From Bacteroidales bacterium (GTDB taxonomy: Bacteria; Bacteroidota; Bacteroidia; Bacteroidales; UBA3663): DNA of 64,000 bases. Of the stretch, positions 2 to 51,854 are shown piece by piece. Position numbers and translations under genes: made by a program. The notes under the pieces are model-generated. The model was not told the origin of the DNA. It made no database searches and saw only the letters and a program-made list of their open reading frames with translations. The stretch lies in contig JAZUDJ010000088.1 in assembly GCA_045639585.1 (NCBI GenBank), positions 562 through 64,561 of the forward strand, read 5' to 3'. Every line of letters starts with the position of its first letter. Position 1 is the first letter of the stretch.

Positions 2-241
2 GTACAGCAGGCCATGATCCAGCAGTACGAAGAGGCTGCCGCCTCGCTCCGCGCGCTTGGATCTCTGCCAAGCCTGCTCCAGCCAATGCAGGATACACTC
101 GATGCGATGAAGGAGATGCCTGTCGCCTCTCCTATCGAGACCGCCATCAGCCAGCTGAGCACCGACATCTTCTACGGCATGATCCTGATGATCCCGATCG
201 CATTCATCGTCCGCAAGAAGGGTGAGGAAAGTAATTTGTAA
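2..241 (+). CDS. 3' end of a CDS that starts upstream of the window; hypothetical protein with a C-terminal hydrophobic anchor
   Basis: The frame is open from base 2 and stops at TAA 239-241. The C-terminal hydrophobic stretch IFYGMILMIPIAFIV is followed by RKKGEE. No family recognised. Confidence 0.4.
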   Translation, partial: VQQAMIQQYEEAAASLRALGSLPSLLQPMQDTLDAMKEMPVASPIETAISQLSTDIFYGMILMIPIAFIVRKKGEESNL

Positions 242-258
242 TTCGTAATTTGTAATTG
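224..258 (+). repeat. heptamer array (GTAATTN variant), 5 units, across a stop/start junction
   Basis: GAGGAAA GTAATTT GTAATTC GTAATTT GTAATTG. TAA occurs at 232, 239, 246 and 253, which covers all three forward frames. The upstream CDS stops at 239-241 and the next ATG is at 264. Confidence 0.8.
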
Positions 259-263
259 TTCTT

Positions 264-1220
264 ATGTCTTTAGATATAAGCGTAATCGTCCCTCTATATA
301 ACGAAGCCGAGTCACTGCCAGAGCTGGCAGCATGGATCGACCGAGTCATGCAAGCCAATGGCTTCTCTTACGAAGTCATCTTCTGTAATGATGGCTCGAC
401 CGATGAGAGCTGGCAGGTGATCCGCCAGTTGCATGAGAAGTATCCGCAGATGCACGGCATGTCGTTCCGCACCAATCACGGCAAGAGCCCGGCTCTTCAT
501 GTCGGTTTCGGCATGGCGCAAGGCAATGTGGTCATCACGATGGATGCAGACCTGCAGGACTCTCCTGACGAGATTCCAGAGCTCTACCGCATGATCACTG
601 AGGATGGGTATGACCTGGTTTCTGGTTGGAAGAAGAAGCGTTTCGACCCGCTGTCGAAGACCATTCCGACCAAGCTTTTTAACGCCACCGTCCGCAAGGT
701 CAGCGGCATCAAGAACCTGCATGACTTCAACTGTGGTCTCAAGGCTTACCGCGGCGAGGTCGTCAAGCACATTGAGCTCTATGGCGATATGCACCGCTAT
801 ATCCCATATCTGGCCAAGAACGCTGGGTTCGGCAAAATCGGTGAGAAAGTTGTGCAGCACCAAGCGCGTAAGTATGGCAAGACCAAGTTCGGCCTCGACC
901 GTTTCGTCAATGGTTACCTCGACCTGATCACCCTCTGGTTCCTCAACCGCTTCGGCTCGAAGCCGATGCTGATCTTCGGTCTCTGGGGTACCGTGGTCTT
1001 CCTGATCGGTTTCGTCGCCGTGCTGAGTATCATCTGCCACAAGATCTATGTGCTCAATACCGTCGGCACCGGCACATTGATCACCAATATGCCAGCCTTC
1101 TACATTGCACTCACCTGCATGCTCCTCGGCGGACAGCTGTTCCTGGCAGGCTTCCTCGGCGAACTCATCTCACGCACCGCACAAGAACGTAATAAGTACG
1201 ATGTTGCAGAAACGATCTAA
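264..1220 (+). CDS. GT2 polyprenyl-phosphate glycosyltransferase (GtrB/DPM1/ArnC-like)
   Basis: Motifs VIVPLYNEAESL, CNDGSTDES and DADLQD (DXD), plus two C-terminal hydrophobic helices typical of GtrB-like enzymes. Confidence 0.85.
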   Translation: MSLDISVIVPLYNEAESLPELAAWIDRVMQANGFSYEVIFCNDGSTDESWQVIRQLHEKYPQMHGMSFRTNHGKSPALHVGFGMAQGNVVITMDADLQDSPDEIPELYRMITEDGYDLVSGWKKKRFDPLSKTIPTKLFNATVRKVSGIKNLHDFNCGLKAYRGEVVKHIELYGDMHRYIPYLAKNAGFGKIGEKVVQHQARKYGKTKFGLDRFVNGYLDLITLWFLNRFGSKPMLIFGLWGTVVFLIGFVAVLSIICHKIYVLNTVGTGTLITNMPAFYIALTCMLLGGQLFLAGFLGELISRTAQERNKYDVAETI

Positions 1221-1713
1221 CATACTCATCCTCCTGATCGGCATGGCGCTGGCCGTGCTGGGTGTAGCGTCGTGCGATAATGGCTGCGAACAGATGCGCG
1301 AGAGCTTTATGCACATCAGCCTCACCGGTACTACCAGCCGTTCGATCCGCAGCCTCAACATTGATGCTCATGGTCGCAAGCAAGGTATGGTGATGAGCGA
1401 CAGCACCACGCTGCAGTATACTCTGCCGGTCAGTAAGTTCGACAATATCGAACTGGAACTCAATCCGAATGACTCGCTCGTGACCTTCGTGCTCCGCAGC
1501 GAATATCAGGATTATGGAGATAAGTTCCAGGCCAATGATACCGTCCGTATCGTCTACAGCGTCAACGGACGATTCCTCGATATGGATTGTGGCTGCACCG
1601 TCGACTATGAGATCAAAAGCGTAAGCCATACCAAGAATCTGCTCGAAGACGTACACATCACCGATCCGAAGATCTTCACTGAGTCTGGTATCAATCTCGA
1701 GTTAACCTACTAA
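1201..1713 (+). CDS. hypothetical lipoprotein
   Basis: ATG at 1201 (MLQKRSNILILLIGMALAVLGVASC) gives a signal peptide with a lipobox Cys. The upstream part of ORF 1105-1713 overlaps the GT2 gene and is not signal-like. Confidence 0.55.
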   Translation: MLQKRSNILILLIGMALAVLGVASCDNGCEQMRESFMHISLTGTTSRSIRSLNIDAHGRKQGMVMSDSTTLQYTLPVSKFDNIELELNPNDSLVTFVLRSEYQDYGDKFQANDTVRIVYSVNGRFLDMDCGCTVDYEIKSVSHTKNLLEDVHITDPKIFTESGINLELTY

Positions 1714-1741
1714 CGATTAGTTGATAATAATCACTTATTAC

Positions 1742-3551: not shown

Positions 3552-3574
3552 TCTCGCGCAACCGAAACTATCGG

Positions 3575-3622
3575 CCCCTAGTATCCCTTAATATCCTTTA
3601 GATTCCCCTAGATATCCCTTAA
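3575..3622 (+). promoter_or_regulatory. tandem ~10-nt pyrimidine-rich repeats in the pyrB leader
   Basis: CCCCTAGTATCCCTTAA (3575-3591) and CCCCTAGATATCCCTTAA (3605-3622) flank TATCCTTTAGATT. Read as ~10-nt units: TATCCCTTAA / TATCCTTTAG / ATTCCCCTAG / ATATCCCTTAA. The array ends 10 nt before the pyrB ATG. Confidence 0.4.
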
Positions 3623-3632
3623 ATAAAATAAT

Positions 3633-4547: not shown

Positions 4548-4548
4548 T

Positions 4549-6213: not shown

Positions 6214-7362
6214 TCAAGGGCGGAAAGAATTGACCCTCTTCACTACCTCTTCCACTTCTACATCCGCCAGCACGGGACTCATCGGCAGCGAGAGTTCCTG
6301 TGCACAAATCTGTTCTGTGATAAGCAACGACAGATGATGTAATTCCGGGTAACATTCCTGCTGATGAGGAGGTATCGGATAATGAATCTGCGTCTGGATT
6401 CCTTGCGAAGACAAATGCTGCTGCAAGGCGTCTCGATGGGTAGAAAGAACCGGGAAAATATGGTAGACAGAAGAGAGCGACATCTGCTCATACTTCTGCG
6501 AAGGAACAGCGACGAAGCTTTGCTCCATATTCTCATGATAGTATCGAGCGATTTCCTGACGTCGCTGGTTATCATCATCCAGATGGTGGAGCTTGACAGA
6601 AAGTATGGCCGCCTGCAGTTCATCTAATCGGCTATTGCGACCTTTATACTTGAACTCATATTTCTTATGGCTGCCATAGTTGGCCAACGCTCGGATGACC
6701 TCAGCCAACTCGGCATCATCCGTTGTTACCGCACCACCATCGCCTAAAGCTCCGAGGTTCTTGCTCGGATAGAAGCTGTGTGCAGCTGCATGGCCTAACG
6801 CCCCGGTCTTTCGGCAGCACCTCTCAGCACTCCGCACTCCACACTCCGCACTCCCAAGACCATGCGCCTGTGCATTGTCCTCCAGAACTAGCAGGCCATA
6901 TTTCTTAGCCAGTTCCCCAATTCTCTCAGTATAGGAGCATGCACCATAGAGATGCACCAACAGGATAGCTCGAGTGCGAGAACAGATGGACTGTTCTATC
7001 AGCGAGTCATCTATCTGCAGTGTATCGAGACGAGGCTCCACCAGCACCGGAGTCAATCCATTCTCTGAGATTGCCAGAATTGTCGCAATATACGTATTGG
7101 CAGGAACGATCACTTCATCTCCAGGAGCGATCTTTCCCAATTCCATATACGCTCGCAGCATGAGAATCAGTGCATCGAGACCACTAGCACAGGATATACA
7201 GTAACGGGTTCCGATGTATCGCGCATACTCCTCCTCGAAGCGTGTGCACTCCTCTCCAAGCAAATACCAACCTCGATCAATCACCCTGCGAGTTGCCTCA
7301 TGCAGTTCCTCGGCATAGCGTGCATTGATCTTCTGCAAATCCAGGAACTTAACCTCTCTCAC
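6214..7362 (-). CDS. DegT/DnrJ/EryC1/StrS-family sugar aminotransferase (PLP-dependent)
   Basis: Motifs EDNAQAHG and HSFYPSKNLGALGDGG (PLP-Lys region). GTG start at 7362-7360 overlaps the stop of the upstream GT4. A heptamer array sits between the two motifs. Confidence 0.9.
   Translation of the reverse strand: MREVKFLDLQKINARYAEELHEATRRVIDRGWYLLGEECTRFEEEYARYIGTRYCISCASGLDALILMLRAYMELGKIAPGDEVIVPANTYIATILAISENGLTPVLVEPRLDTLQIDDSLIEQSICSRTRAILLVHLYGACSYTERIGELAKKYGLLVLEDNAQAHGLGSAECGVRSAERCCRKTGALGHAAAHSFYPSKNLGALGDGGAVTTDDAELAEVIRALANYGSHKKYEFKYKGRNSRLDELQAAILSVKLHHLDDDNQRRQEIARYYHENMEQSFVAVPSQKYEQMSLSSVYHIFPVLSTHRDALQQHLSSQGIQTQIHYPIPPHQQECYPELHHLSLLITEQICAQELSLPMSPVLADVEVEEVVKRVNSFRP
6827..6854 (-). 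repeat. heptamer tandem array, 4 units, inside the DegT ORF (sense orientation)
   Basis: Plus strand GCACTCC GCACTCC ACACTCC GCACTCC. On the gene strand it is translated as SAECGVRSAE. Confidence 0.85.
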
Positions 7363-8584
7363 TAAGTACTTCTCTATAGAATTCGTAGAGTTTTTCTCTC
7401 ACAAATCCCTGCTCCCAACGCTCCGATATAATCTGACGAGCTCGCTTACCCATCTGCAGGCGCTCCTCCTCATGCTCCATCATCCAGCACATAGCCTCAT
7501 AAAGAGCATCAGCATCCTTCGATGGAACCATGACTCCATTCTCGCGGATACTCATTGTCTCCCCTGGCTGCAGATGCTGCGATACGTATTGTGAATCTAT
7601 CGCTTTAAGAATGATATCCCTGCATCCATTGATATCCGTCACGATCGATGCCAGCTCCATAGCACCAGCTTCGAGCACCGTATTCGGGAAACCTTCACGA
7701 TAGCTAGGGAATACGAAGCAATCAGCAGCGGCATAATATGCCAGCAGGTCTTCTATTGGTTTTGGACCTACCGCCTCAATCTCTGGCATCGTATCAATAA
7801 GGTGGCGTGTCTCTGGAGTAACGGGATCCAGATGATCCTCAATCCATCCGACCAGCACTAGACGACAACTTCTCCCTTCTCCCTTATTCTTTTTACTTTC
7901 AATAAGCTTGTTAAATGCAGCAACAAGCTCATTGATACCCTTATCGCCTACGATACGACCTACAAACAGAAACGTGAAGAGCTTTTTTCCATCAGGGGCA
8001 ATAGCTCCTAACTCCTCACTCCAAACTCCTACCATTTCTGGCTTTTGCCAGAATGAAAGATCTACTCCCTTCACATTACCATAGCCAAGAAGACGCATCG
8101 GCTTTTTGGTAATTCCGTAATTCTTCAGATCGTCGAGAACTCCGAGACTCTCAGGAATCACATGGGTGGCACAGGCGCAGGTTATTCTGTCGGTCATCAT
8201 CAGGATCTTACGCTTGATTCCTGATGTCGTTGGCCATATCAATCCTGTAAATGTATGAATACGATATGGAACTCTTGCCATCCATGCCGCCATCATACAC
8301 AGCAGACCAGCTTTCGGGGTCATGGAGTGCACCATATCCGGTTTCTCAGCGCGGAAGACACGATACAAAGCCCACAAGGCCTTCATATCCTTGACCAAAG
8401 AGATCTTTCTCTCCATCTCCACCCCGATGGTGCGGACATCCTCACGGGCAGCGACCTGCTTCAGATCCTCATCGGGTGAAGACACCGCTACTACCTCATA
8501 TCCTTGATCCTTCAAATCCTGTAAGATACCTTTACAGAAGATATTCAAGGATAGGCCGATCGTTGCACAACGTATAATTTTCAT
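7349..8584 (-). CDS. glycosyltransferase family 4
   Basis: FVFPSYREGFPNTVLEAGAMELASIVTDINGCRD (the E-x7-E region of the GT4/GT1 fold). Length 411 aa. Confidence 0.85.
   Translation of the reverse strand: MKIIRCATIGLSLNIFCKGILQDLKDQGYEVVAVSSPDEDLKQVAAREDVRTIGVEMERKISLVKDMKALWALYRVFRAEKPDMVHSMTPKAGLLCMMAAWMARVPYRIHTFTGLIWPTTSGIKRKILMMTDRITCACATHVIPESLGVLDDLKNYGITKKPMRLLGYGNVKGVDLSFWQKPEMVGVWSEELGAIAPDGKKLFTFLFVGRIVGDKGINELVAAFNKLIESKKNKGEGRSCRLVLVGWIEDHLDPVTPETRHLIDTMPEIEAVGPKPIEDLLAYYAAADCFVFPSYREGFPNTVLEAGAMELASIVTDINGCRDIILKAIDSQYVSQHLQPGETMSIRENGVMVPSKDADALYEAMCWMMEHEEERLQMGKRARQIISERWEQGFVREKLYEFYREVLSERG
8002..8029 (-). repeat. heptamer tandem array, 4 units, inside the GT4 ORF (sense)
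   Basis: Plus strand TAGCTCC TAACTCC TCACTCC AAACTCC. Translated as GVWSEELGA. Confidence 0.8.
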
Positions 8585-9237
8585 CCGAGTACGGTTTCAA
8601 GAATATACTTTATATCCAAAGACAGAGACTGATGGCGATAATACTCCAGATTGATTTTCACCTTATCCGGATAGATCACATAATCATTATACCACAGCGC
8701 AATCTCCTCATCGCTCATCGACGAGAACTCGACAGCAGGGCATTCACTCCTAACTCCTAATTCCTCACTCCTAACTTGATGAAGAAAATCTGCAATCAGA
8801 TTTTCCTCATCTCTGTACTTCAGCGTTGCCGGCCCCGTAATTCCAGGACGAAGCTCTAGCACCAATCGGTCCTCCCCGACCAACTTATCAGCATAGCCTG
8901 GGACATCCGGGCGCGGACCGACAAAACTCATGTCGCCGATAAAGACATTCCACAATTCAGGCAGTTCGTCGAGCTTATATTTGCGAAGCTTTGCGCCCAA
9001 TGGAGTGATACGCGCCTCTCCAGCCACACTCACGCTGCTACCGCCATGGCTCACAGTCATCGAGCGGAACTTATACATCGTGAACAGATCGCCATGCAGC
9101 CCCACTCTCTTCTGCTTGAAAATCGCAGGTCCTCCCGGCATCTTTACCTTTATTAATATAGCTACAACGATCAGCACCGGCCATAACAGCAGTAGCCCGA
9201 TCAGTGCCATCACTCTATCAAATATCCATTTACTCAT
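8581..9237 (-). CDS. small bacterial sugar transferase (PglC/WcfS-type polyprenyl-phosphate hexose-1-phosphate transferase), likely the initiating enzyme
   Basis: N-terminal re-entrant helix, then FTMYKFRSM and DELPELWNVFIGDMSFVGPRP. At 218 aa it is slightly longer than the ~200 aa I expect for this family, and it carries a heptamer array. Confidence 0.9.
   Translation of the reverse strand: MSKWIFDRVMALIGLLLLWPVLIVVAILIKVKMPGGPAIFKQKRVGLHGDLFTMYKFRSMTVSHGGSSVSVAGEARITPLGAKLRKYKLDELPELWNVFIGDMSFVGPRPDVPGYADKLVGEDRLVLELRPGITGPATLKYRDEENLIADFLHQVRSEELGVRSECPAVEFSSMSDEEIALWYNDYVIYPDKVKINLEYYRHQSLSLDIKYILETVLG
8744..8778 (-). repeat. heptamer tandem array, 5 units, inside the sugar-transferase ORF (sense)
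   Basis: Plus strand TCACTCC TAACTCC TAATTCC TCACTCC TAACTTG. Translated as VRSEELGVRSEC. Confidence 0.85.
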
Positions 9238-11730: not shown

Positions 11731-11765
11731 TACCTTTTCACTATTAACTGTTAACTTTTATCTTA
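11731..11765 (-). repeat. degenerate heptamer array, 5 units, across a gene junction
   Basis: Plus strand TACCTTT TCACTAT TAACTGT TAACTTT TATCTTA. On the gene strand it supplies the C-terminus KIKVNS and three consecutive in-frame stops, TAA TAG TGA (11746-11738). Confidence 0.6.
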
Positions 11766-12880
11766 AGCGCATACCCTGGAATGCTTCTATATTCCTCCGA
11801 ATGCACAAATCGCCATGCATCCACCAATCCCTGCACAAAATAGATCGGTATCCTCAAATCAAGCAGCAGGACGCCAGCAATAATATTGACCAGCAGCAAC
11901 CACACACATTTCAGCACGAAAGCTGTAACAAGAGCGGCTTGAGACGAAGAATTTACTCCAAACTCCTCACTCTTCGAGCCCTCAGCTAAAGCTTCGTCTT
12001 CTCGCCAAGAGCATAAAAATGCTCTTGCTATTGGCTGCGAGGACCTCACTCCTAACTTAATTCTGTACCATATTATCGCAGACATCAGCGACCTGATATA
12101 ATACTTCTTATGCGTATGATGATACACCGAGCTTGCCGTCTTCGCATTGAGGTAATTCACTCCTGCATCATAGTTGAGCATGAGCTTACCTCCATTGACG
12201 AAGCACTTGAATGATTCCACCAGGTCATCACCGTATGCGAACTCCGAGAGCCGGTCCATCCATAGCTCATCCTCCCAGTGGAGTGATAGGAGCGAAGACC
12301 TCTTCCACATCACACACGGGCCATCCAGTTTCTGCGTTGGCAAACATAATCCAGAATCACACTTCTTAGCATCCCGAATCTCTGCAATCTTTCGCTTTGA
12401 GAGATAGCTGAACGCTCCCGTGCGAGTCACCTTATACGCCCACTTAACATCATAATGAGGAGCCACCCAGTTGGTCAGGATAGCAAAAGTCTTCAGACCA
12501 AGACTCATATCCTGATCCTTGAAACAGTCGGCACCCATCGCATCCACATCATGCGCCACCAAGCTCTTGAGCAATCGCTCTGCCGTATCCGGAGCCAGCT
12601 CCACATCGTCATCGAGCAATAGCAGATAAGGCGATGTCAATTCATCGTATGGCAATGCACGCTGTGCCACCATGCCCTTCTTGACATAGCGATACTCCTC
12701 ACGACCGATTGTTCCGTCCACGAACTTCACGCCACATGTCTCCGCCACATATACGATCACCCTCTCCGGCTGTATCGTCTGGCGAGCAATGGACTCCAGC
12801 TCCTGTCTGAACTTTTCTCCTGCCGTACCAAGTGTACGTATCGCTATCGAATATTTAGGTATCAATTCCTCACACCTCAT
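11744..12880 (-). CDS. GT-A fold (GT2-like) glycosyltransferase with a C-terminal membrane segment
   Basis: YSIAIRTLGTAGEKF and LLLLDDDVEL. Paralogue of 17871-18836 but 32 codons longer near the C-terminus. Confidence 0.7.
   Translation of the reverse strand: MRCEELIPKYSIAIRTLGTAGEKFRQELESIARQTIQPERVIVYVAETCGVKFVDGTIGREEYRYVKKGMVAQRALPYDELTSPYLLLLDDDVELAPDTAERLLKSLVAHDVDAMGADCFKDQDMSLGLKTFAILTNWVAPHYDVKWAYKVTRTGAFSYLSKRKIAEIRDAKKCDSGLCLPTQKLDGPCVMWKRSSLLSLHWEDELWMDRLSEFAYGDDLVESFKCFVNGGKLMLNYDAGVNYLNAKTASSVYHHTHKKYYIRSLMSAIIWYRIKLGVRSSQPIARAFLCSWREDEALAEGSKSEEFGVNSSSQAALVTAFVLKCVWLLLVNIIAGVLLLDLRIPIYFVQGLVDAWRFVHSEEYRSIPGYALKIKVNS
11953..12059 (-). repeat. composite insert: heptamer units at both ends plus a 9-bp hairpin
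   Basis: TTACTCC AAACTCC TCACTCT (11953-11973). Hairpin CAAGAGCAT-AAAA-ATGCTCTTG (12006-12027). TCACTCC TAACTTA (12046-12059). This corresponds to the extra peptide SQPIARAFLCSWREDEALAEGSKSEEFGVNSS that the paralogue lacks. Confidence 0.7.
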
Positions 12881-12897
12881 TCCTCGCTCCTAACTAT
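12863..12897 (-). repeat. heptamer array, 5 units, spanning a stop/start junction
   Basis: Plus strand CAATTCC TCACACC TCATTCC TCGCTCC TAACTAT. On the gene strand: AGT TAG GAGCGAGGA ATG AGG TGT GAG GAA TTG. The upstream stop, a 9-nt purine spacer and the downstream ATG all lie inside the array. Confidence 0.8.
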
Positions 12898-14334: not shown

Positions 14335-15600
14335 TTACTCACACAGCTTATAGATCTTCTCGATCTCCGACTCATTGCCATAATCATGCTCTGACAGATA
14401 CTCAGTCAATGAGCTCAGCAACTTCTCATCCTTGATTACCTTAATCATCGCCTCAGCACACGCCTCACGCTCCAATGGCACAATCACTCCATCCACACCA
14501 TCCTGCACCTGCGACGGCGCCGTAGGATAATGCGTCACAATCACCGGCTTGCACAATATCTGCGCCTCCCTCACCGTAATGCTTTTCCCTTCATACCGCG
14601 AAGGCTGTACATAGATATCGCACGTACGGATATATGGATAAGGATTCGACTGCTTGCCAAGTAGAATCACGTGCTCCTCCATCCCTTCCTTGCGAATCTC
14701 ATCCCTCACCTGTTGCTCAATCTCAGGACTTCCGTAGCCGATAATGTACCACTTGACATTCCTACCTCCAAACTCTTCACTCTTACTTATGTCGTCGACC
14801 AATCGCCGACATAAGTAAGGAATGTCTTCCATCTTCTTAGCCTTCGAGTATCGTCCTATCGTCAAGAGCTTTAAATAATGATCCTGCTCAAATATAGGGC
14901 AAGACTCCTGACTTCTCTGACGAATAAAACGCGGAGATAGAATATTCTCGATATCAATAATCTTATTTTTCAAAGAAGGGAATACCTCCACGAACTTAGC
15001 CGATACATCAGGAGAAATAGAAGAGATCACATCCAGACGCTCCCACATGCGCAGCTCCATCTCCCGATTGATGAATACATTCGTATAGTCCGTGTGGATC
15101 CATCCAAGCTTCTTCTTCGCACGGACTTTATCCAGTACAATATAATGAGGTGTCAGAAACGAAATTGCCAGATCATATTCCACCTCAGGATTAATCTTCG
15201 GCAAACACTTCACAGTCCTATGCTGCTGAAACACAACATGCGCATTACTCTCCAGCCCCTTAACATTACGCTTCAGATATCTCTTATCCTCCCATCTACC
15301 CCAAAGTCGAGCAAGAGCCAGTCGCCAGTATCCTTTCTTTATCAGCAACGCTATCGGCTCTTCCAGCATCGCATAAGCCTCCACCTCCGGCAGCAATCTA
15401 AATCTAGGGACAATCTGGCATTCCTCACTCCTCACTCCACACTCCTCACTAATATAATGCATCAACTCCCCTCTATGCGCATAAATAAAAACATCCACCT
15501 CTGAACGAACAGGATCCACACTCTGCAGCAAGCCGAGAAGTGCCATCTCAGCACCACCCAGCTCCATATAATGCATCGCTATAAGAATCTTCGGCCTCAT
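14335..15600 (-). CDS. glycosyltransferase family 4
   Basis: IYVQPSRYEGKSITVREAQILCKPVIVT. Carries two repeat insertions (14763-14819 and 15418-15452). Confidence 0.8.
   Translation of the reverse strand: MRPKILIAMHYMELGGAEMALLGLLQSVDPVRSEVDVFIYAHRGELMHYISEECGVRSEECQIVPRFRLLPEVEAYAMLEEPIALLIKKGYWRLALARLWGRWEDKRYLKRNVKGLESNAHVVFQQHRTVKCLPKINPEVEYDLAISFLTPHYIVLDKVRAKKKLGWIHTDYTNVFINREMELRMWERLDVISSISPDVSAKFVEVFPSLKNKIIDIENILSPRFIRQRSQESCPIFEQDHYLKLLTIGRYSKAKKMEDIPYLCRRLVDDISKSEEFGGRNVKWYIIGYGSPEIEQQVRDEIRKEGMEEHVILLGKQSNPYPYIRTCDIYVQPSRYEGKSITVREAQILCKPVIVTHYPTAPSQVQDGVDGVIVPLEREACAEAMIKVIKDEKLLSSLTEYLSEHDYGNESEIEKIYKLCE
14763..14819 (-). repeat. heptamer units fused to a 13-bp perfect hairpin inside the GT4 ORF
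   Basis: TACCTCC AAACTCT TCACTCT (14763-14783). Hairpin CTTACTTATGTCG (14782-14794) / CGACATAAGTAAG (14807-14819). Translated as PYLCRRLVDDISKSEEFGGRN. Confidence 0.75.
15418..15452 (-). repeat. heptamer tandem array, 5 units, inside the GT4 ORF (sense)
   Basis: Plus strand GCATTCC TCACTCC TCACTCC ACACTCC TCACTAA. Translated as ISEECGVRSEEC. The reverse complement of 15427-15446 equals 23100-23119. Confidence 0.85.
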
Positions 15601-15636: not shown

Positions 15637-15671
15637 GAACTCCTCACTCCTAGTTCCTCACTCTTCATTAA
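15637..15671 (-). repeat. heptamer tandem array, 5 units, filling an intergenic gap
   Basis: Plus strand GAACTCC TCACTCC TAGTTCC TCACTCT TCATTAA. The reverse complement of 15638-15667 matches 21994-22023 at 28/30. Confidence 0.85.
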
Positions 15672-15672: not shown

Positions 15673-16794
15673 TTAGAGTTTTCCAATCAAGAACATAAAT
15701 AATGTAAATCCCGCATGCAGCAGCAAGAACAATCCAATCTTGCGATCCTGATCATCCCAAATATGCAAACGGATTAAGCCATACGCTAGCACCAATGGAT
15801 AAAGAAACCAGGAAAGATAAGCAAAACGATTACTGAAATTCACACGAATTACTAAAATCCAAATACTATTAGCCAAAAGATAGGTTACGGCCAAGTAGTC
15901 AAAAATACGTTCTCGGATTTTCTTCTTGATATTAACATAGTATATTAGCAATACTGGCATGGCACTATATAACAAAAAGTCCCAGCGGAAGCCAGTACGA
16001 GAGAACCCCGCCTCTGTAGTATGACCAACTGCATAATCAGCATATTTTGCTTCACCAGCCATCAAACTTCCTAAGTGGCTCGTAAAGAAGCCTCCTGCCA
16101 CAAGTGACAGTCCAATAGATGCCACCCAAATCATCAGAGCATATTTTGGATTCTTTATAATATACAAAGCAGTAACAGCGCAAACAATAGGAATAATTGT
16201 AGACTTATGAATTGACAAAACCAAATATGCGATAATCGCTGCTAATAAAAGTTGCATTTTATTACCATTAGCCCGTATTGCGATTGTCATTGCCGCCATT
16301 ACTATAGCGCAGGCTAAACCATTACGAACGCCATTCACTGCAAACACATAAAACTCAAAAGCAGAAAGAATAAATAGCATCGCTATCCATACATTTTCCC
16401 ATAATAGTTTCCGGCAAGCCCAATATTGCAAATAGATATAGCCAATCGCACAAACTAAAAAAAAGATCTGCTCACTCATCCCCAAATTAATGAGCACTTG
16501 TTGAATCCAGGAAAAGACCCATTCTCCCTTGTCCTCAATAGCCGCTCCAGATATTAATCCTGCTCGATACCCACGCGCATAAGTGACCATATCTCCGAAC
16601 ATCCAATGCGTTGGTCGCAATCCCAAATATAAAATAACCAACACACTTAATAAAAGAGCTGGAACAAAAGTATTTTGCTGAAGTAAAAGCTTATTATTAG
16701 GAGATGCTGAATATCGTATAAACACAAACCCACATAGGGCAAAAGCTACCCAATAATAAACTTGAGAATAAATAAAAGGAGAAATCCCAAACAT
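15673..16794 (-). CDS. EpsG-family / Wzy-like polysaccharide polymerase (polytopic membrane protein)
   Basis: 373 aa and hydrophobic throughout (about 10-11 predicted helices). Positioned among GT genes. The assignment rests on architecture and context only. Confidence 0.6.
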   Translation of the reverse strand: MFGISPFIYSQVYYWVAFALCGFVFIRYSASPNNKLLLQQNTFVPALLLSVLVILYLGLRPTHWMFGDMVTYARGYRAGLISGAAIEDKGEWVFSWIQQVLINLGMSEQIFFLVCAIGYIYLQYWACRKLLWENVWIAMLFILSAFEFYVFAVNGVRNGLACAIVMAAMTIAIRANGNKMQLLLAAIIAYLVLSIHKSTIIPIVCAVTALYIIKNPKYALMIWVASIGLSLVAGGFFTSHLGSLMAGEAKYADYAVGHTTEAGFSRTGFRWDFLLYSAMPVLLIYYVNIKKKIRERIFDYLAVTYLLANSIWILVIRVNFSNRFAYLSWFLYPLVLAYGLIRLHIWDDQDRKIGLFLLLHAGFTLFMFLIGKL

Positions 16795-21986: not shown

Positions 21987-21996
21987 TTTTTTGTGA

Positions 21997-22024
21997 AGAG
22001 TGAGGAATTAGGAGTGAGCAGTTA
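21997..22024 (+). repeat. heptamer tandem array, 4 units, at the 3' end of the VirE-like gene (antisense to it)
   Basis: AGAGTGA GGAATTA GGAGTGA GCAGTTA. The last TTA is the stop codon (reverse complement TAA) of 22022-24280. Confidence 0.85.
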
Positions 22025-24280
22025 TTCGACGCGAACCAAATATCTTTTGATACCATGAAGAATGCGGCATTCAAAACCCTGACGGCCAAGCGCAGCACCT
22101 AAGGCTCTGACATTCAGCTTTGCCGACGGATTGTAGTAATTGATTCGCGCTGCAATCTCCGCCGCAGTCATCCACTTGCTGTCGCTCAGCGGTTGGCCAT
22201 CCTCTCCAAGATTAGGTTGGTGTACATAGACACTGCACAGTTCCACCTCAACGCTCTGCGACACATACTGCTCATTGTGCTTGTCGAGCTGTCGGATGTC
22301 CTGCTGGCTCATCACAAACATCCCAGCCTCATGCTGCGCCAGATAGAGAGCTTGCGCGTAAATATGTTCGTAGTCGGGACGACACTCGAAAGGATTGACG
22401 GTAAAGCGACGCACCGTAAATGTCAGCCAGCGGCGGTTGCCTGTCGGGTCGGTCAGGAAGTCGGCGCGATTGCCCGTAGCGCAGAACGTAGCGATACGCG
22501 GCATGGTACGTGGCGACTTGTCGTATGGCAAACGTTCGCGGATCACATCGAGCGTGACGAGAGACTTGAGTTGATTGACCTCCACCTCGCTCATCGCATC
22601 GATCTCCTCCAGGTTAATCAATCCGCACTCGGCCAGCTGGATGCGGTCGTCCTTGTCGAGGTTGCGGAAGCGCATCTGCTCCTTATAATAAGCGCGAAGC
22701 TCCGGTGGCATCAGCATACGCATCCACGAGGACTTGCCTATGCCCTGCGCACCGATGAAAGTCAGGATTGTGCCATGGGTGCTCGACATGTGAATCCAGC
22801 CGTGCACCATCGCCACCATCCAGCGCTTGAAGAAGTCGTCGAGCAAGGCGCGCGTCTCCTCGCCACCCTCCACCTCCACCGTCTGGATCAGCTCGTGAAG
22901 GTAGTCCTTATCACCAGGCTTCCACAATCCTTGCAACGGCTGCAGATACGCTATAATAGGATTGTAGGGCAATGAGCAGGTGTCACTCTGAAGGACATTA
23001 TACACGTCGGTCGATGTGGTGGTCAATGCAGTTTCCTCAAAGAACAGGCGCATCAAGGTGGCGACATCCGAGTCGTGCAACTCGTAATAGTGTGGAATTA
23101 GGAGTGTGGAGTGAGGAGTTTTTCCACTCTCGCACAAAGATCCGACCAAAGCCAATGACGACAGGTTACGCTGAGCGTATTGAGCCATTTGCGAGCCTTC
23201 ATTCCACTCGACCTCCAGTCGGTGAGAGATCATATTCTTGCGATACGTTCCCTGACTCAGCAAAAACGCCTCGATGTCAGCCGACGTGGCGCGATGCACC
23301 TTCTTCTCGCTGTTTTTCTGCTGGTTAGGCAATCGAAGTGTACCGAACTCTGCCTGCTTCGACTCGTAAATGCTCTTCACCACGCTCGTGATACCACGCT
23401 CTCCGTCACCATAATAGAAGTAGCGCTCCTTAGCCTCAGCCAGCGCCTCTTCCTGCTCGATGCCATAGCGATTGACCTCATAAATGACGGTGCTAAGGAA
23501 CTTGTTCAACGTGCCATGCTTCGCCTCAAATCCTTGCGTCTTGGCAAAGGCCTCAGCGGCATCAAAGGCTCTGGACAGCTGCGTCTTGACAGGTCGTCCC
23601 ACCGGATTGCCCGTCGCCATATGGGCCTTGCTCTGCTCAAAGTCGAGCAAAGCCTGGCTTAAGATAACGGTATAGGGCTGATAGTTATCCTTAAAATACT
23701 TAGCCTCAGGATCGTATGCCATAGCACTCGGTCGCGCTGCATCCTTACACTGCGTATCGACACGGAGATCCTTCAGCGTCGGAGCATTCGAGAACCACTC
23801 CTCAAACTGGCGGCGCACATCCTCCCAGATGGCATTCCACAGCAGGCGTGAGCGCTGACTCTTCTTCGGATCACGGAAGTCGAGCTCCGCCAAGTCCATC
23901 GGCTGCATATCGTGATAGCACACCTGATAGGCCACGATGACGTGCAGGCCCTTGCCGCTCAACGACCGGTGATAGCCAACGACATGCATCAGCATACCGA
24001 GGTAAGCGACCATGTATTCCATCTGCTTCTCATCCAGATGGTCATAGTCGAAGTAAAGCAATCCAGTGAGCTGCTTGATATTCTCCGTCTTCCTGCCACC
24101 CTCCATGATGGCCGACGGTACGAACACCGGCACGCGCTGCTTTTGCCCCACTCCCTGACGGTGCATCTCTGTCTGCATCCGCAAGTCCTGATCCGTCTTT
24201 ATTTTCGTAAAGACGTCGCCCAGCGACACTATCTGCGGGGGGGTAGACAGTAGATTATTGAAAGTTGAAACGGTTTCCAA
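22022..24280 (-). CDS. VirE-like P-loop NTPase with an N-terminal primase-like (VirE_N/BT4734-like) region
   Basis: Walker A FIGAQGIGKSSW. 752 aa with a large N-terminal domain. TTG start at 24280, 9 nt after the HTH gene stop. The family call comes from remembered architecture, not a search. Confidence 0.75.
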   Translation of the reverse strand: METVSTFNNLLSTPPQIVSLGDVFTKIKTDQDLRMQTEMHRQGVGQKQRVPVFVPSAIMEGGRKTENIKQLTGLLYFDYDHLDEKQMEYMVAYLGMLMHVVGYHRSLSGKGLHVIVAYQVCYHDMQPMDLAELDFRDPKKSQRSRLLWNAIWEDVRRQFEEWFSNAPTLKDLRVDTQCKDAARPSAMAYDPEAKYFKDNYQPYTVILSQALLDFEQSKAHMATGNPVGRPVKTQLSRAFDAAEAFAKTQGFEAKHGTLNKFLSTVIYEVNRYGIEQEEALAEAKERYFYYGDGERGITSVVKSIYESKQAEFGTLRLPNQQKNSEKKVHRATSADIEAFLLSQGTYRKNMISHRLEVEWNEGSQMAQYAQRNLSSLALVGSLCESGKTPHSTLLIPHYYELHDSDVATLMRLFFEETALTTTSTDVYNVLQSDTCSLPYNPIIAYLQPLQGLWKPGDKDYLHELIQTVEVEGGEETRALLDDFFKRWMVAMVHGWIHMSSTHGTILTFIGAQGIGKSSWMRMLMPPELRAYYKEQMRFRNLDKDDRIQLAECGLINLEEIDAMSEVEVNQLKSLVTLDVIRERLPYDKSPRTMPRIATFCATGNRADFLTDPTGNRRWLTFTVRRFTVNPFECRPDYEHIYAQALYLAQHEAGMFVMSQQDIRQLDKHNEQYVSQSVEVELCSVYVHQPNLGEDGQPLSDSKWMTAAEIAARINYYNPSAKLNVRALGAALGRQGFECRILHGIKRYLVRVE
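23094..23121 (+). repeat. heptamer tandem array, 4 units, inside the VirE-like ORF (antisense orientation)
   Basis: GGAATTA GGAGTGT GGAGTGA GGAGTTT. Read on the gene strand as KTPHSTLLIP. Confidence 0.85.
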
Positions 24281-38645: not shown

Positions 38646-39488
38646 CTATACGGTATCCATAAAGTTGCGCTCGGTATGAGAAAAGACAATGACGCTTAGG
38701 AAGAGGCCGACAAACATGAAGATGGTGCTGTAGAGGAGTCCTCCCCAATCAAGAGTGCCACATCCGAGGCTGGAGTATTTGAAAGCCTCGAAAATAGGAG
38801 TCAAAGGATTTAGGGCAATGATTTCGCGATACTTCTCTGGAGCGGCGCTCAGTGGATAGATGACTGGGGTGGCATACATGAATAGCTGGATGCCAAACTG
38901 AATGAGAAACTTGAGGTCGCGATACTTTGTGGTCAGCGAGGAGATGATCAGACCCCAGCTCATAGAATGGAGAGCGAGCAATACCACTAAAAGTGGGAGA
39001 ATGAGGAGTGAGGAATGAGGAGTAAGGAATTGACCTGCTTGGGTAAAGAACTTGAAATAGAGATATACCATTATGAAGAGGACGAGCTGAATGAGCATCT
39101 TCAGCAGGTTGCTCGTAGCAATGCTGAGGGGCACCACCAAACGTGGGAAATAGACCTTACCAAACACGTTGGCATTAGCAGAGAAGATATCAGAGCAAAG
39201 GGTGAAGGTCTCACTGAAATAATTCCAGAGCAAGATGCCAGCCATGTAAAAAAGTGGTTGAGGTGCCCCATCGGTACTGATGCCGGCTAGTCCACCAAAC
39301 ACAAACATGTACATAATGGTGGTAAAGACGGGCTGGATGACATACCATAACGGTCCAAGGATAGTCTGCTTGTACTTGGTGACGATATCACGCTTGACAT
39401 ACATGACATAAAGGTCGCGATAGCGCCATAAACCTTTGATATCAATATCCAATAGGCCTCGACGTGGGGTGATTACATGTTCCTGCAT
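38646..39488 (-). CDS. wzm: ABC-2 type polysaccharide exporter permease (Wzm/TagG/KpsM-like)
   Basis: 280 aa with six hydrophobic helices and an ABC-2 pattern (KYKQTILGPLWYVIQP). The ATPase partner lies 8.5 kb upstream at 48037-49317. Confidence 0.8.
   Translation of the reverse strand: MQEHVITPRRGLLDIDIKGLWRYRDLYVMYVKRDIVTKYKQTILGPLWYVIQPVFTTIMYMFVFGGLAGISTDGAPQPLFYMAGILLWNYFSETFTLCSDIFSANANVFGKVYFPRLVVPLSIATSNLLKMLIQLVLFIMVYLYFKFFTQAGQFLTPHSSLLILPLLVVLLALHSMSWGLIISSLTTKYRDLKFLIQFGIQLFMYATPVIYPLSAAPEKYREIIALNPLTPIFEAFKYSSLGCGTLDWGGLLYSTIFMFVGLFLSVIVFSHTERNFMDTV
38998..39032 (+). repeat. heptamer tandem array, 5 units, inside the wzm ORF (antisense orientation)
   Basis: AGAATGA GGAGTGA GGAATGA GGAGTAA GGAATTG. 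Read on the gene strand as FLTPHSSLLIL. Confidence 0.85.
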
Positions 39489-48029: not shown

Positions 48030-48036
48030 GATCGCC

Positions 48037-49317
48037 TTACAGTTCTATATTGTCCGTAGAAACTAACCCAATGATTCCATCCCTATCGCATATTAATGGC
48101 TGTCCAAATTGAGCTACTCCACCATCGACATGGATGACAGCACAATGAGGTGCATGCATATAATGACAAACATTGGGTTGGTGTAAGAAAATATCTATCA
48201 AATAATCACCACTACTAAGAAAACGCGGCAACTTGATCGTTTTTTTTATTGTAAATACTTTTGTAGTAATTGTCTTTGTGATGCCTCTATAATGTCCTTC
48301 GGCAAGGATAGCCATCGGTATTCCTTGCATATTCCGAAATTCAATGCGGACGTCCAGATCTGGAATAATTTCTGTCGTAATACCCTCCAAGAAAAACTCT
48401 AGAGTGGTCTGATTAGAAGTGATTATGCTTTCGGAAAATGGAGTACCATTCAGCTCTATTCGTGAAATTTTCAGAAAAGAACTCGTCCAGGCAATTCCAT
48501 CTATGATTTTTGGAGACGTGGGGGAAACTAACCCACTCATATATTTGAGGATTAGACTATCTACATCACCATCAAAGACTAAATGTCCATTGTCTAATAA
48601 CAGTCCTCGTGTACAGAGATTTTTTACAGCAGCCATATTGTGACTGACAAAAAGGACTGTTCGGCCCTCGCCTTTAGCCACATCCTGCATCTTGCCGAGA
48701 GCCTTTTTCTGAAACTCGGCATCACCAACTGCCAGGACCTCATCAACGACAAGAATCTCTGGTTCAAGGAATGCAGCAACGGCAAAACCGAGACGGACAG
48801 TCATGCCAGAAGAGTAGCGCTTAACTGGGGTATCGAGATAGCGCTCTATACCAGCAAAATCAACAATAGCATCAAGTTTTCGGCTAATCTCATGACGGGT
48901 CATTCCCATGATCGATCCGTTCATAAAGATATTTTCACGGCCGGTCATCTCGGGATGAAAACCCGTACCGACTTCGAGAAGGCTGGCTACGCGCCCCTGA
49001 TAGCGGATGCGTCCCGTGGTGGGACTGGTAATGTTAGAAAGCAGTTTGAGCAAGGTGCTCTTGCCTGCACCATTTTTACCAATGATGCCAACAACTTCAC
49101 CCTGCTCAACCTGAAAGGAGATATCCTTGAGTGCCCAAACGTAGTCAGAAGAACCTCGTACAGAACGATCGTTGACCTCTCCAATCTTTAGATAAGGATC
49201 TTCACGATGCAGAATACGAGTCTGCCACCAACGATTCAGGTCATGACTTAAAGTACCTGTACCGACTCGGCCGAGTCGGTACATTTTTCCTACATTATTA
49301 AATTCTATAGAACTCAC
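48037..49317 (-). CDS. wzt: polysaccharide ABC exporter ATP-binding protein with a C-terminal extension (Wzt-like)
   Basis: Walker A GIIGKNGAGKSTLLK, signature YSSGMTVRL, Walker B ILVVDEVLAVGD. About 180 extra C-terminal residues, as in glycan-binding Wzt proteins. Confidence 0.85.
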   Translation of the reverse strand: MSSIEFNNVGKMYRLGRVGTGTLSHDLNRWWQTRILHREDPYLKIGEVNDRSVRGSSDYVWALKDISFQVEQGEVVGIIGKNGAGKSTLLKLLSNITSPTTGRIRYQGRVASLLEVGTGFHPEMTGRENIFMNGSIMGMTRHEISRKLDAIVDFAGIERYLDTPVKRYSSGMTVRLGFAVAAFLEPEILVVDEVLAVGDAEFQKKALGKMQDVAKGEGRTVLFVSHNMAAVKNLCTRGLLLDNGHLVFDGDVDSLILKYMSGLVSPTSPKIIDGIAWTSSFLKISRIELNGTPFSESIITSNQTTLEFFLEGITTEIIPDLDVRIEFRNMQGIPMAILAEGHYRGITKTITTKVFTIKKTIKLPRFLSSGDYLIDIFLHQPNVCHYMHAPHCAVIHVDGGVAQFGQPLICDRDGIIGLVSTDNIEL

Positions 49318-51812
49318 TTTTTCTTCTTAGAAGTCTCCTTCTCGTCATCATCCTCGCCATATCCGTATGAAGAATACTGACTACCAGATCCGTATGCATA
49401 ACCATAACGTGCACCATAACGGTGGTTGCCATAGCGAGAGAAGGCGTCGGTAGTACCATTGAGAAGGACTGTCATCTTTGGCAAGCGCTTCTCGTCATAG
49501 TACTTCTGTACATCAGGCAACGCGGTACGCTGGAGAGCCTCTGCTCGGATAACAAAGAGGGTCATTGTAGCCAATCGTGCACAGATAGTTGCATCAGCAA
49601 CGATCTCGAGTGGAGGACAGTCGATAAAGATATAATCGTACTCCTTCTTCAACTCATTGATCATCGTATCGAGACGCTCCTCAAACAACAACTCGGTCGG
49701 GTTTGGTGGAATCTTACCGGCTGGAAGGACATCCAGATGATCGTTTAATCCGCTTGGCTTAATCAATGAGTGGAAATCATCGACATGACCAGCGAGATAG
49801 TTAGAAAGACCGATACTACGCTTTCCGACCATGGCCGAGAGGGAACGCTTGCGCATATCGATATCAACCACAAGAACACGCTTATTCTTTAATGCCAAAG
49901 CCATAGAGAGGTTGGTCACAACGAAAGTCTTACCAGAGTTCGGATTGAATGAGGTAAGCATAATGACTTGACCCTCTTCTGTGCGACCAGCCACGAATTC
50001 GAGGTTAGTACGAACCACTCGGAAAGCCTCATTCATGACATCGGTCTTTCCATCTCGGACCATAATATGCAATGTCTTGTCCTCCTTAGGCTGCTTACCG
50101 AAATGGAATCGCATACGAAGATTACGGAAGAAACGGACAAAAGCACCATCCGGATTGGTCATTGGAATCTCACCAAGGAATGGAATAGAGAGCACATCCA
50201 GATCCTTACGGCCACGAACAGAAGTGTTGACCATTTCACTTAGGATAATGATAACACATGGCAACAGGAAGCCGATCAAAAGACAGAGGATATAGACATT
50301 CTTTGCGACTGGGAAGGTAGGCCAATTGCTACCTGACGGAGGAGTCACAACGCGGCTATTATAAGCGGTGAAGGCCTGCGAAAGCTCATTCTCCTCACGC
50401 TTCTGAAGCAGGAAAAGATAAAGCGACTCCTTGACCTTCTGCTGACGCTCTACAGATAGCAAATATCGACTCTGTCCTGGAGCAGAAGCCACGCGGCTAT
50501 TACTGATAGCTTGTACACTCTGAGAACTACGAACCAAAAGGGAGACCTCACTGATGTAGCTGTCAATAGAACTGAGCATAGACGAGCGGAGACCCGCCAA
50601 CTGCATATCCATATCCTGGACCAAAGGGTTCTGAAGGGAGGATGCAGAAACCAAGTTGTTACGGCGAAGAAGCATCTCATTGTAAGCAGAGACCTGACCA
50701 CCTACCGATCCACCAAGACCCTCACTGGTAGGAATCAATTGATTATGGCTGGACTCATTGGTCAGATAGCTACGAATAGTACGGGCCATATACAACTGGT
50801 TGTTGAGCTTGACCTGCTCCTCACTGGCACTCTGGGCCTTACCCATATAGGCGCCTGCAGTTGCCTCAGCATCACCAATGATCAAGTGCTCAGACTTGTA
50901 GCTGGAAATATCACCTTCGACATTTCCCAACTCATTCTCAATAATCTTAAGTCGTTCACTGATGAAGTTATTGGTGCTGATGCTGACTTGGTTCTTCTCC
51001 TTCATCCACTGCTCATTGTAGATGTTAATGACATTATAAAGAATGTCTTCGGCCTTCTGGGGATTAAAGTCATTTACCACGAGGTTGATGACAGATGAAC
51101 CATTCTCAGGAGAAACAATCAACTCATTGACATAGAACGCCAAGGTGCTCTGCAAACTATGCTGTTCGACTACAATCGGACGATCGGTCTGATAATAGAA
51201 ATCAGTAGCATAGATCTTTACTTTGCCGACAGGGGTCTCAATCGTAGTACCCAATCGACCTTTCAAAGATTTATCGCTCCATTCCTGATCGTTAAGATAG
51301 ATGTTATGCAGAAGGAAGGCTGAATCTGGCAGTAACTCAAGGTTAAAACCGGCAGCCTTATTATCTGGAACATCAAGGAATTCAACCTTGACAGGGAGCG
51401 AGCTTCCATAAAGTGTACTGCGATAGAATCGACCTTGCACGAAATACTCCATCTGAAGACCTAAACGCTTGATAGCCTCAGTCATAATGACAGGTGACTT
51501 GAGCGTAAAGATCTCATTGTTCATATCGACATTGCTCTGGAACAGTTTATCATCAGACAAGACACCCAAATCCTGACTCTTTGCCACATCCTTGATCATA
51601 ATAGAGGATGTACGAGTATAAATAGGACGAGTATACTGAAGGTACAACTCGGCAGCTCCCCATCCCAGCAAAAGGCAAAGGATAATCCAAGGCCAATGGG
51701 AAACCAGAAGAAGAAGAATGTCGAGAGGACGCAAAGAAGGTCCTGCAGGCACCTGTGTCTGTTGAGCCGGCTGAGTTGCCTGAGTCTGTGTGGTTTGTGA
51801 TTCTGGTAACAT
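49314..51812 (-). CDS. wzc: polysaccharide co-polymerase / tyrosine autokinase (Wzc/GumC-like)
   Basis: Two TM segments flank a large periplasmic region. Motifs TSFNPNSGKTFV, VLVVDIDMRKRS and YIFIDCPP. Tyr-rich tail RYGNHRYGARYGYAYGSGSQYSSYGYG. Confidence 0.9.
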   Translation of the reverse strand: MLPESQTTQTQATQPAQQTQVPAGPSLRPLDILLLLVSHWPWIILCLLLGWGAAELYLQYTRPIYTRTSSIMIKDVAKSQDLGVLSDDKLFQSNVDMNNEIFTLKSPVIMTEAIKRLGLQMEYFVQGRFYRSTLYGSSLPVKVEFLDVPDNKAAGFNLELLPDSAFLLHNIYLNDQEWSDKSLKGRLGTTIETPVGKVKIYATDFYYQTDRPIVVEQHSLQSTLAFYVNELIVSPENGSSVINLVVNDFNPQKAEDILYNVINIYNEQWMKEKNQVSISTNNFISERLKIIENELGNVEGDISSYKSEHLIIGDAEATAGAYMGKAQSASEEQVKLNNQLYMARTIRSYLTNESSHNQLIPTSEGLGGSVGGQVSAYNEMLLRRNNLVSASSLQNPLVQDMDMQLAGLRSSMLSSIDSYISEVSLLVRSSQSVQAISNSRVASAPGQSRYLLSVERQQKVKESLYLFLLQKREENELSQAFTAYNSRVVTPPSGSNWPTFPVAKNVYILCLLIGFLLPCVIIILSEMVNTSVRGRKDLDVLSIPFLGEIPMTNPDGAFVRFFRNLRMRFHFGKQPKEDKTLHIMVRDGKTDVMNEAFRVVRTNLEFVAGRTEEGQVIMLTSFNPNSGKTFVVTNLSMALALKNKRVLVVDIDMRKRSLSAMVGKRSIGLSNYLAGHVDDFHSLIKPSGLNDHLDVLPAGKIPPNPTELLFEERLDTMINELKKEYDYIFIDCPPLEIVADATICARLATMTLFVIRAEALQRTALPDVQKYYDEKRLPKMTVLLNGTTDAFSRYGNHRYGARYGYAYGSGSQYSSYGYGEDDDEKETSKKKK

Positions 51813-51854
51813 ATAAGGATAATTACGAATTACAAAACTCTGGTTACAAATTAT
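51813..51854 (-). repeat. heptamer array (GTAATTN variant), 6 units, filling the wza-wzc gap
   Basis: Plus strand ATAAGGA TAATTAC GAATTAC AAAACTC TGGTTAC AAATTAT. The reverse complement of 51821-51836 equals 235-250 (TTTGTAATTCGTAATT). Confidence 0.8.

Follow-up and report, generated by a model that had tools for sequence, protein, structure and literature searches.

The 64,000-nucleotide (nt) stretch analyzed here, referred to as the window, occupies positions 562–64561 of contig C88 in a 2.83-Mb metagenome-assembled genome (MAG; G000), an incomplete assembly that is 87% complete and whose closest named relatives are uncultured Bacteroidales MAGs. It contains short tandem arrays of heptanucleotide units at gene junctions. 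An earlier note on this DNA had described four of them, sites (a) to (d), as suppliers of stop codons, purine-rich spacers, and start codons that might punctuate the boundaries between cistrons or might simply accumulate where they are tolerated. The four sites are members of a lineage-specific set of heptanucleotide mini-arrays that extends through the whole genome and draws on a small unit vocabulary. These arrays are abundant, are concentrated between co-directional genes, follow strand rules close to start codons, occur in frame within protein genes, turn over between related genomes, and are patchily distributed. We consider it fairly probable that they represent a DNA-level repeat population filtered by translation, which persists where it does little harm, rather than dedicated punctuation.

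Abundance, placement, and strand of the heptamer arrays

The arrays were detected with Tandem Repeats Finder (TRF) at scores of at least 30 and at least 40, and a strict regular expression of the unit was used in addition for the GGAG class; the chance level was set by two third-order Markov simulations of the genome. Period 7 was the dominant tandem period. At a score of at least 30, 381 period-7 arrays were observed against approximately 45 expected, and at a score of at least 40 the number was 224 against none in both simulations, with only 3 arrays of period 6 and 10 of period 8. Tandem repeats of 5–11-nt units were therefore far above chance with period 7 leading, as in the heptanucleotide class of simple sequence repeats.

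A typical array comprised approximately 4 units and 27–34 nt. Runs of exact cores at period 7 had a mode of 4 units and dropped sharply above 5, and the simulations contained no runs of 3 or more units. The main unit classes were GTAATTN/GATAATT (TAATT class), GGAGTGA/GGAGTTA (GGAG class, CTCC on the opposite strand), and ACATTNT (ACATT class), and the vocabulary was small, with recurrent units such as GAGGAGT/AGGAGTT, GTAATTT/AGTAATT/GATAATT/CATAATT, and ACATTTT/ATACATT. Only 5 of the 167 four-unit arrays were homogeneous, and the alike units and broad length spread expected for in-place growth from one unit were not seen. A one-sided tail motif followed 23 of 80 GGAG arrays, compared with a background of 10.8% (p = 9e-6). 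In addition, 32 inverted array pairs were found around variable cores of 4–115 nt, often containing GCTACGCG/CGCGTAGC or TTGTTAGT (for example, C109:117088–117188, C21:14447–14551, C27:691–806, and C102:3216–3318), and just these pairs could form hairpins. Empty sites in related genomes shared part of the GCWGC head or tail seen at the arrays.

Genes were predicted with a purpose-written gene caller, which gave 2162 genes and a coding fraction of 88%. Among the 381 arrays, 226 were intergenic, 46 straddled a gene end, and 109 lay fully inside open reading frames (ORFs). The other 272 did not, and the density per kb was approximately 19 times lower for coding DNA than for the rest of the genome. 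Whether the arrays exceed at junctions what the abundance of intergenic DNA alone would give was a check set beforehand, and the enrichment stood: co-directional gaps contained 1.20 arrays per kb, compared with 0.35 in convergent and 0.33 in divergent gaps. Counted per junction, arrays were present at approximately 12% of co-directional, 5.6% of convergent, and 9.2% of divergent junctions (Fisher p = 0.006). Of the 219 arrays in co-directional gaps, 89 lay within 3 nt of the upstream stop codon and 64 (29%) contained it, in agreement with the claim that the arrays supply upstream stops. The ends of 84 arrays were located 2–12 nt before the predicted ATG. The companion claim, that the arrays also supply start codons, described a rare event: a start codon was inside the array in 10 of the 219 cases (approximately 5%), and ATG was depleted on the sense strand (23 versus 51 antisense, p = 0.0015).

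The orientation of the arrays was strongly constrained, as had been claimed for the four sites. In co-directional gaps, the TAATT strand was the sense strand in a ratio of 57:11 (p = 1e-8). When only arrays wholly in the spacer were considered, the sense bias was 35:13 for TAATT, 17:2 for CTCC, and 18:3 for ACATT; it peaked within 12 nt of the start (35:5, 14:0, and 14:2, respectively) and was gone beyond 40 nt. No skew of G versus C was detected on the sense strand (102 versus 100). Stops in all three frames were found on the sense strand only in 71 arrays and on the antisense strand only in 37 (p = 0.0014). The description of an array as an all-frame stop signal thus held as a sense-strand excess, but it applied to the TAATT class alone, since the ACATT and CTCCTCA classes had no all-frame stops.

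A Shine–Dalgarno site is a purine-rich, GGAGG-like stretch of the mRNA that lies 4–13 nt before the start and is in general use. The suggestion that GGAG tracts before ATG act as signals of this type was contradicted by the genome-wide orientation. None of 8 GGAG-sense arrays, against 17 of 22 CTCC-sense arrays, lay within 40 nt before a start (p = 0.0002), and in the strict GGAG-class set abutting ATG, 19 arrays placed the CTCC strand in the mRNA and 3 the GGAG strand. GGAG-sense junction arrays occurred only beside stops. Since it is the CTCC strand that precedes starts and the GGAG-sense orientation is excluded there, the reading of these arrays as ribosome-binding sites fails as a rule, and site (b) is a rare exception.

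Two further roles were considered and rejected. The RNA of junction arrays showed no structure beyond that of shuffled controls (z from −0.7 to +1.0), and single arrays that fold no better than shuffles are poor candidates for terminators or hairpins. The −7 promoter box of Bacteroidetes is TAnnTTTG; by inspection, the GTAATTTG arrays are one T short of it.

Junction sites, turnover, and in-frame arrays

All four arrays were present as the earlier note had described them, although sites (c) and (d) were weak as arrays. Their orthologous junctions were compared in two related genomes, G031 (the closest relative, represented by 754 kb) and G032, both of which are colinear with the window at 49300–64000 with approximately 79–90% nucleotide identity. 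Site (a) is located on the forward strand at 231–257 and consists of GTAATTY units with the TAATT strand in sense (TRF GTAATTT x3.9, 90% matches; also period 14, 100%). The DUF4199-like upstream ORF ends AGT AAT TTG TAA, with the stop TAA (239–241) within the array, which ends 6 nt before ATG 264 of a GT2 gene; the Pfam GT2 domain begins at residue 6 of the ORF starting there. Both the stop and the start were where they had been placed. In G031, the same junction has 7 units versus 4 here, with stop and start unchanged.

The remaining three sites lie on the reverse strand. Site (b), at 12863–12897, is a GGAG-sense array (TTAGGAG CGAGGAA TGAGGTG TGAGGAA), a degenerate member of the GGAGTGA class with a TRF score below 30 that was found by the strict unit expression. 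Its gene strand reads TAT AGT TAG GAGCGAGGA ATG AGG TGT GAG GAA TTG, and the array does contain the upstream gene's stop TAG (12890–12892), the spacer, and the next gene's first in-frame ATG (12878–12880). The G031 array is 11 nt shorter and lacks this ATG; an ATG 12 nt downstream, where the present genome has ATA, is used instead. Site (c), at 11731–11765, marks the end of gene 11744–12880 and lies 17 nt before ATG 11721 of the next GT2 gene. Its gene strand, AAC AGT TAA TAG TGA AAA GG, contains the three successive in-frame stops TAA TAG TGA that had been noted; as an array, however, it comprises just approximately 3 loosely alike units of GTTAAYA type (GTTAACA GTTAATA GTGAAAA) and was not reported by TRF. 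In G031, this entire segment (51 nt) is missing and the two genes overlap. Site (d), at 51813–51854, occupies the 38-nt spacer between the stop (51851–51853) of a wza-like Poly_export gene and ATG 51812 of a wzc-like Wzz/GNVR/AAA_31 gene, with two clean units, CGTAATT/TGTAATT (GTAATTN), plus degenerate ones and with the TAATT strand in sense. Different AT-rich repeats were found at this position in the present genome, G031, and G032. The arrays are therefore not needed as punctuation at these orthologous junctions: in G031, (c) lacks the array, and (a) and (b) carry an altered one.

The same picture was obtained for 97 orthologous sites (53 arrays of this genome and 44 of G031), compared at approximately 86–90% nucleotide identity. 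The length was unchanged at 40 sites, 23 had an array of another length (at least 9 of them by approximately a multiple of 7 nt), 11 were empty on one side, and 23 were without a clear array. Taken from the present genome, 20 of the 53 arrays had the same length in G031, 9 differed by approximately a multiple of 7 nt, 7 had another length, 3 were empty, and 14 had no clear array; taken from G031, 20 of the 44 arrays were kept here, 7 differed in length, 8 were empty, and 9 were unclear. The length differences included ±7, 21, and 28 nt, and copy number thus changed in unit steps between related genomes, as in an array with 1.7 versus 4.7 units; one 28-nt presence/absence was clean. No clear signal of extra conservation of the arrays was detected in the G031 comparison, as same-length orthologues were 92% identical and their flanks 90%. 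At two junctions that are just 4–6 nt wide here, array insertions were found in G032. In the whole set of 61 genomes, the number of TAATT arrays per genome ranged within the genus from 0 to more than 240, and the arrays were absent in most other families of the order.

The two G032 insertions (L094/L096) are 66 nt and approximately 110 nt long and stand opposite window positions 55153–55158 and 56633–56640. The longer one is an inverted pair of GGGGAGTAAAA-type arrays, and both junctions are a few nt wide in G031 as well.

Similar arrays were found inside protein genes. Among 83 strict GGAG-class arrays, 41 were located in an open frame flanked on either side by sequence with coding potential (24 CTCC-sense and 17 GGAG-sense). 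The host genes in the window encode a DegT aminotransferase, GT4, Bac_transf, and GT1 proteins, a VapE-like protein, an ABC-2 permease, and a 4Fe-4S protein, and Pfam domains span or flank each array; outside the window, arrays were found in gyrA, ileS, and thrA, identified above the NCBIfam cut-offs, and in several glycosidases. In comparison with orthologues, the net insert sizes were 24, 27, 33, and 42 nt, plus 30 nt for DegT, whose array adds 10 residues that the solved homologues PDB 7n63 and 5u1z lack; all of these are multiples of 3. In the GGAG-sense coding arrays, TGA was swapped for TTA or GGA in precisely the unit where it would be in frame. Together, the avoidance of TGA and the insert sizes show that the in-gene arrays are translated. 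At the orthologous positions, other relatives had either different tandem repeats or a stretch of unrelated sequence that varied in length; these positions are therefore permissive loops.

Beyond the four sites, at least ten further arrays of heptamers are present in the window, of which eight are within ORFs; those listed here all lie on the reverse strand. The DegT/DnrJ aminotransferase gene carries a TGCGGAG/TGTGGAG array in frame at 6823–6854 (GSAECGVRSAERC). The GT4 glycosyltransferase gene has two in-frame arrays, a short GGGAGAA x2.4 array at 7869–7885 that is kept in G031 and a GGAGTTN array at 8005–8031 (VGVWSEELG); at the latter, units are of CTCCTAA type here versus CTTTTAA type in G031 (C39) with an identical register, and the whole array either changed in concert or was replaced. 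The GGAGTKA array of the Bac_transf sugar transferase gene (8746–8776, QVRSEELGVRSE) is split in frame in the G031 orthologue by a 33-nt insert containing GTTACGCGATGC. A GGAGTGA array is in frame (SEECGVRSEEC) at 15422–15450 in the N-terminal part of the GT1 gene 14335–15600. CTCC-sense arrays are in frame at 23089–23119 (KTPHSTLLIPHY), in a 752-aa protein between its N-terminal and VapE domains, at 39002–39028 (LTPHSSLLILP) in the ABC-2 permease, and at 57298–57329 (TPNSPLQTPNS) in a variable linker of the 4Fe-4S protein; the last of these is kept in the two closest relatives, and more distant ones have other repeats there. Outside genes, a GGAG-sense array at 15639–15667 directly follows the stop TAA (15673–15675) of an EpsG-family gene, 38 nt before ATG 15600, and a CTCC-sense array (CTGCTCACTCCTAATTCCTCACTCTTCAC) at 21991–22022 is immediately 3' of the TAA stop of the VapE-like gene. 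These two arrays are near-identical members of the GGAG class in inverted orientation and bracket approximately 6.3 kb of glycan-synthesis genes, an arrangement that may be coincidental, given approximately 100 such arrays in the genome.

Other repeats were observed nearby. An array of period 10/11 (CCCCTAGATAT-like, 4.3 copies, TAG or TAA in each unit) at 3575–3618, just upstream of ATG 3633, is a junction repeat of like style but not a heptamer. A long spacer separates the wza-like gene from the gene that ends at 52969; at approximately 52823–52870 it contains a perfect 16–17-bp hairpin (GACTCCTCAAAATCTCA ... TGAGATTTTGAGGAGT) followed by T residues, which is kept in G031 and G032 and is probably a terminator. 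Outside the window, 61 intergenic tandem arrays whose period is exactly 42 nt are dispersed through the genome, with 2–6.4 copies each (for example, C10:2062–2247, C79:30861–31130, and C138:13737–13976). Their unit forms two hairpins, TTCC...GGAA and a second stem that covaries between loci. A scan against Rfam 15 that covered six of these loci gave only sub-threshold noise and nothing near a gathering score.

Origin and persistence of the arrays

We suggest that the arrays are made and remodelled as DNA, by gain and loss of 7-nt units in a manner resembling strand slippage, while whole arrays of approximately 28–45 nt may appear or vanish; the one-sided tails and the inverted pairs around a GCTACGCG-like core would point to the copying of cassettes. 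The arrays would persist in same-strand gene spacers and, in frame, in the loops and linkers of proteins. Near starts, selection on the mRNA leader would pick the strand, removing those that carry AUG or GGAG and retaining TAATT, CTCC, and ACATT strands, and this filter would make the arrays look like deliberately sense-oriented elements. Stops, and occasionally starts, would be by-products: an ORF that enters a stop-rich array would end there, and an array ATG may be taken as the start where no usable ATG precedes it. We infer slippage or copying as the generator, selection behind the strand rules, and no dedicated function.

Dispensability at orthologous junctions, the patchy load, the absence of all-frame stops from two of the three classes, the depletion of ATG and GGAG near starts, and the copies in essential genes all argue against punctuation. 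The positional and strand pattern is thus supported, and a dedicated punctuation function is not. From the overall reading of the earlier note, the junction enrichment, the strand preference, and the stops inside arrays are retained; the supply of starts and the punctuation role are not, and the purine tracts before ATG do not amount to a Shine–Dalgarno-like rule. Its fallback, accumulation where tolerated, comes closer to the evidence but needs an added strand filter related to translation.

Several points weigh against the reading favored here. The narrow four-unit mode and the shared vocabulary are not predicted by simple slippage, approximately 40% of the arrays are of exactly the same length in the orthologue and 92% identical to it, and no generating enzyme or template was found. 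In addition, the share of co-directional junctions with an array, approximately 12%, was flat across residual spacer lengths and exceeded the approximately 7% predicted from the convergent and divergent rates; therefore, an association with stop–start junctions fits these figures better than neutral accumulation. Gene starts were taken from our own caller, which introduces error into the distances to starts. The four-unit mode, the heterogeneity of units, the flat 12%, the one-sided tail, and the inverted pairs remain unexplained by simple slippage.

The excess at co-directional junctions, its flat share per junction, and the strand bias near starts would also be expected of functional intercistronic elements, which would terminate ribosomes in all frames and provide an unstructured leader that aids the next cistron in a host independent of Shine–Dalgarno pairing. 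The many arrays that hug stops or end shortly before ATG, the enrichment of all-frame stops on the sense strand, the lack of RNA structure, and the translational role proposed for the similarly laid out TAACTGA repeats (PMC4679880) are in line with such a function. Nevertheless, we regard it as unlikely: 88% of same-strand junctions do without an array, close relatives lose, alter, or swap the array at orthologous junctions, and some congeners have no TAATT arrays. Moreover, two of the three main classes lack sense-strand all-frame stops, like arrays occur inside genes, and persisting arrays are no more conserved than their flanks. The fixed strand near starts, together with the preferred size of approximately 4 units and the small, genome-specific vocabulary, could instead reflect sites for a sequence-specific single-strand nucleic-acid binder (a cold-shock-domain, S1, or other protein) that reads approximately four heptamers and controls a post-transcriptional regulon, as was already proposed for the TAACTGA repeats (PMC4679880). 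More than one such binder would be required, however, to serve several unrelated unit families; both orientations occur in coding regions and far from starts, the adjoining genes (glycan genes, glycosidases, and housekeeping genes) have no theme in common, and no candidate protein was found, all of which makes this proposal very doubtful.

The heterogeneity and fixed size of the arrays, the tail after GGAG arrays, the inverted pairs with their GCTACGCG-containing cores, the discrete presence or absence of 28–33 nt, and the patchy, genome-specific load might indicate a non-autonomous mobile cassette, similar to miniature inverted-repeat transposable elements or repetitive extragenic palindromic (REP) sequences or arising by templated insertion. 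It would be actively copied, and the periodicity would be a property of the cassette, not of slippage. This seems highly improbable to us, as the genome and several array-rich relatives have no Y1/RAYT (REP-associated tyrosine) transposase, single arrays have neither target-site duplications nor terminal inverted repeats, and ordinary slippage is at work too, as is evident from the changes in steps of 7 nt. Exact 24-mers common to up to 11 loci, which were considered as proof of copying and pasting, are expected from a small vocabulary with 2–3 variants per unit and are not decisive. More speculatively, an active and undescribed process of DNA writing or copying might lay polar cassettes of approximately 30–45 nt, consisting of a four-unit array and a short non-repeat tail or core and sometimes paired in inverted orientation, into spacers and coding loops. 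Its template would be genome-specific and its enzyme would not be of the Y1 type, with slippage and selection acting only afterwards; we give this proposal a small chance.

In this genome, approximately 3% of genes end at a stop inside an array and a few start in one, and dozens of proteins, including GyrA, IleS, and ThrA, carry array-encoded inserts of 8–14 residues. Changes of one unit will lead gene callers and orthology pipelines to misplace gene ends or misjudge frameshifts. For translation initiation regions, the arrays also amount to an insertion experiment made by nature, in a phylum where Shine–Dalgarno pairing is not used: in the last 12–40 nt before starts, GGAG-rich or AUG-containing strands are not found, and AU-rich or CU-rich ones are. 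Finally, they display a mutational process that runs in a 7-nt register. Its vocabulary and load vary widely among species within a single genus, which makes this genus a good place to seek the cause of the long-noted excess of heptamers in bacteria.

Relation to known bacterial repeats

The closest published pattern is that of the TAACTGA heptamer direct repeats described in marine Beggiatoaceae, some cyanobacteria, and five Bacteroidetes (MacGregor, 2015; PMC4679880). These repeats occur in sets of 2–6 copies, mostly intergenic, forward, and a few nt upstream of starts; copies in forward orientation introduce a stop into each of the three frames and may run into the 3' end of the preceding ORF, reverse copies are found within ORFs, the phylogenetic distribution is patchy, and the function is unknown (PMC4679880). 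The layout of the present arrays is alike, as 84 of 219 end 2–12 nt before ATG, 64 of 219 contain the upstream stop, and the TAATT class is in sense 35:5 within 12 nt of starts. The units differ, however: several unit families were found here, and TAACTG-like units were rare, those of AACTGTT type being present in 9 arrays only. In addition, many copies lie in frame inside essential genes, the GGAG-type arrays follow a strand rule, with the CTCC strand before starts and the GGAG strand only after stops, and the host is an uncultured gut Bacteroidales.

Long simple sequence repeats have units of 5–11 nt, with heptanucleotides the commonest (Mrazek, Guo and Shah, 2007, in the part relayed by PMC4679880), and heptamer repeats of Xanthomonas and Nostoc have been reported (Rehm et al., 2015; PMC4692102). 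The arrays share with both an excess of period 7, occurrence in sporadic taxa, a mostly non-coding location, and copy changes in unit steps. They differ in being short, at approximately 4 units, in having heterogeneous units, and in their strong strand and position rules.

The short tandemly repeated repetitive (STRR) heptamers of cyanobacteria are reportedly dispersed tandem heptamers between genes, with small repeats nested in them. The likeness, taken as a lead only, lies in intergenic heptamers with non-repeat modules in or next to the arrays, represented here by the GTTACGCGATGC-type core and the tail, whereas the phylum and the unit sequences differ. Rickettsia palindromic elements, said to be palindromes of approximately 100–150 bp situated in frame in protein genes, provide a parallel for repeat DNA tolerated in frame in conserved, even housekeeping, proteins; the present arrays are tandem, 27–34 nt long, and, when single, without a hairpin, in contrast to palindromes. 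The REP/REPIN (REP doublet) mechanism driven by RAYT was rejected. No match to the Y1 transposase family PF01797 was found in the present genome (87% complete) or in the array-rich relatives G004, G035, G037, G009, G041, and G044, and its occurrence did not correlate with array counts; nor do single junction arrays, which fold like shuffles, have the hairpin palindrome of a REP unit. The arrays thus fall within the known, still unexplained bacterial heptamer repeats, with a pattern close to that of the TAACTGA repeats.

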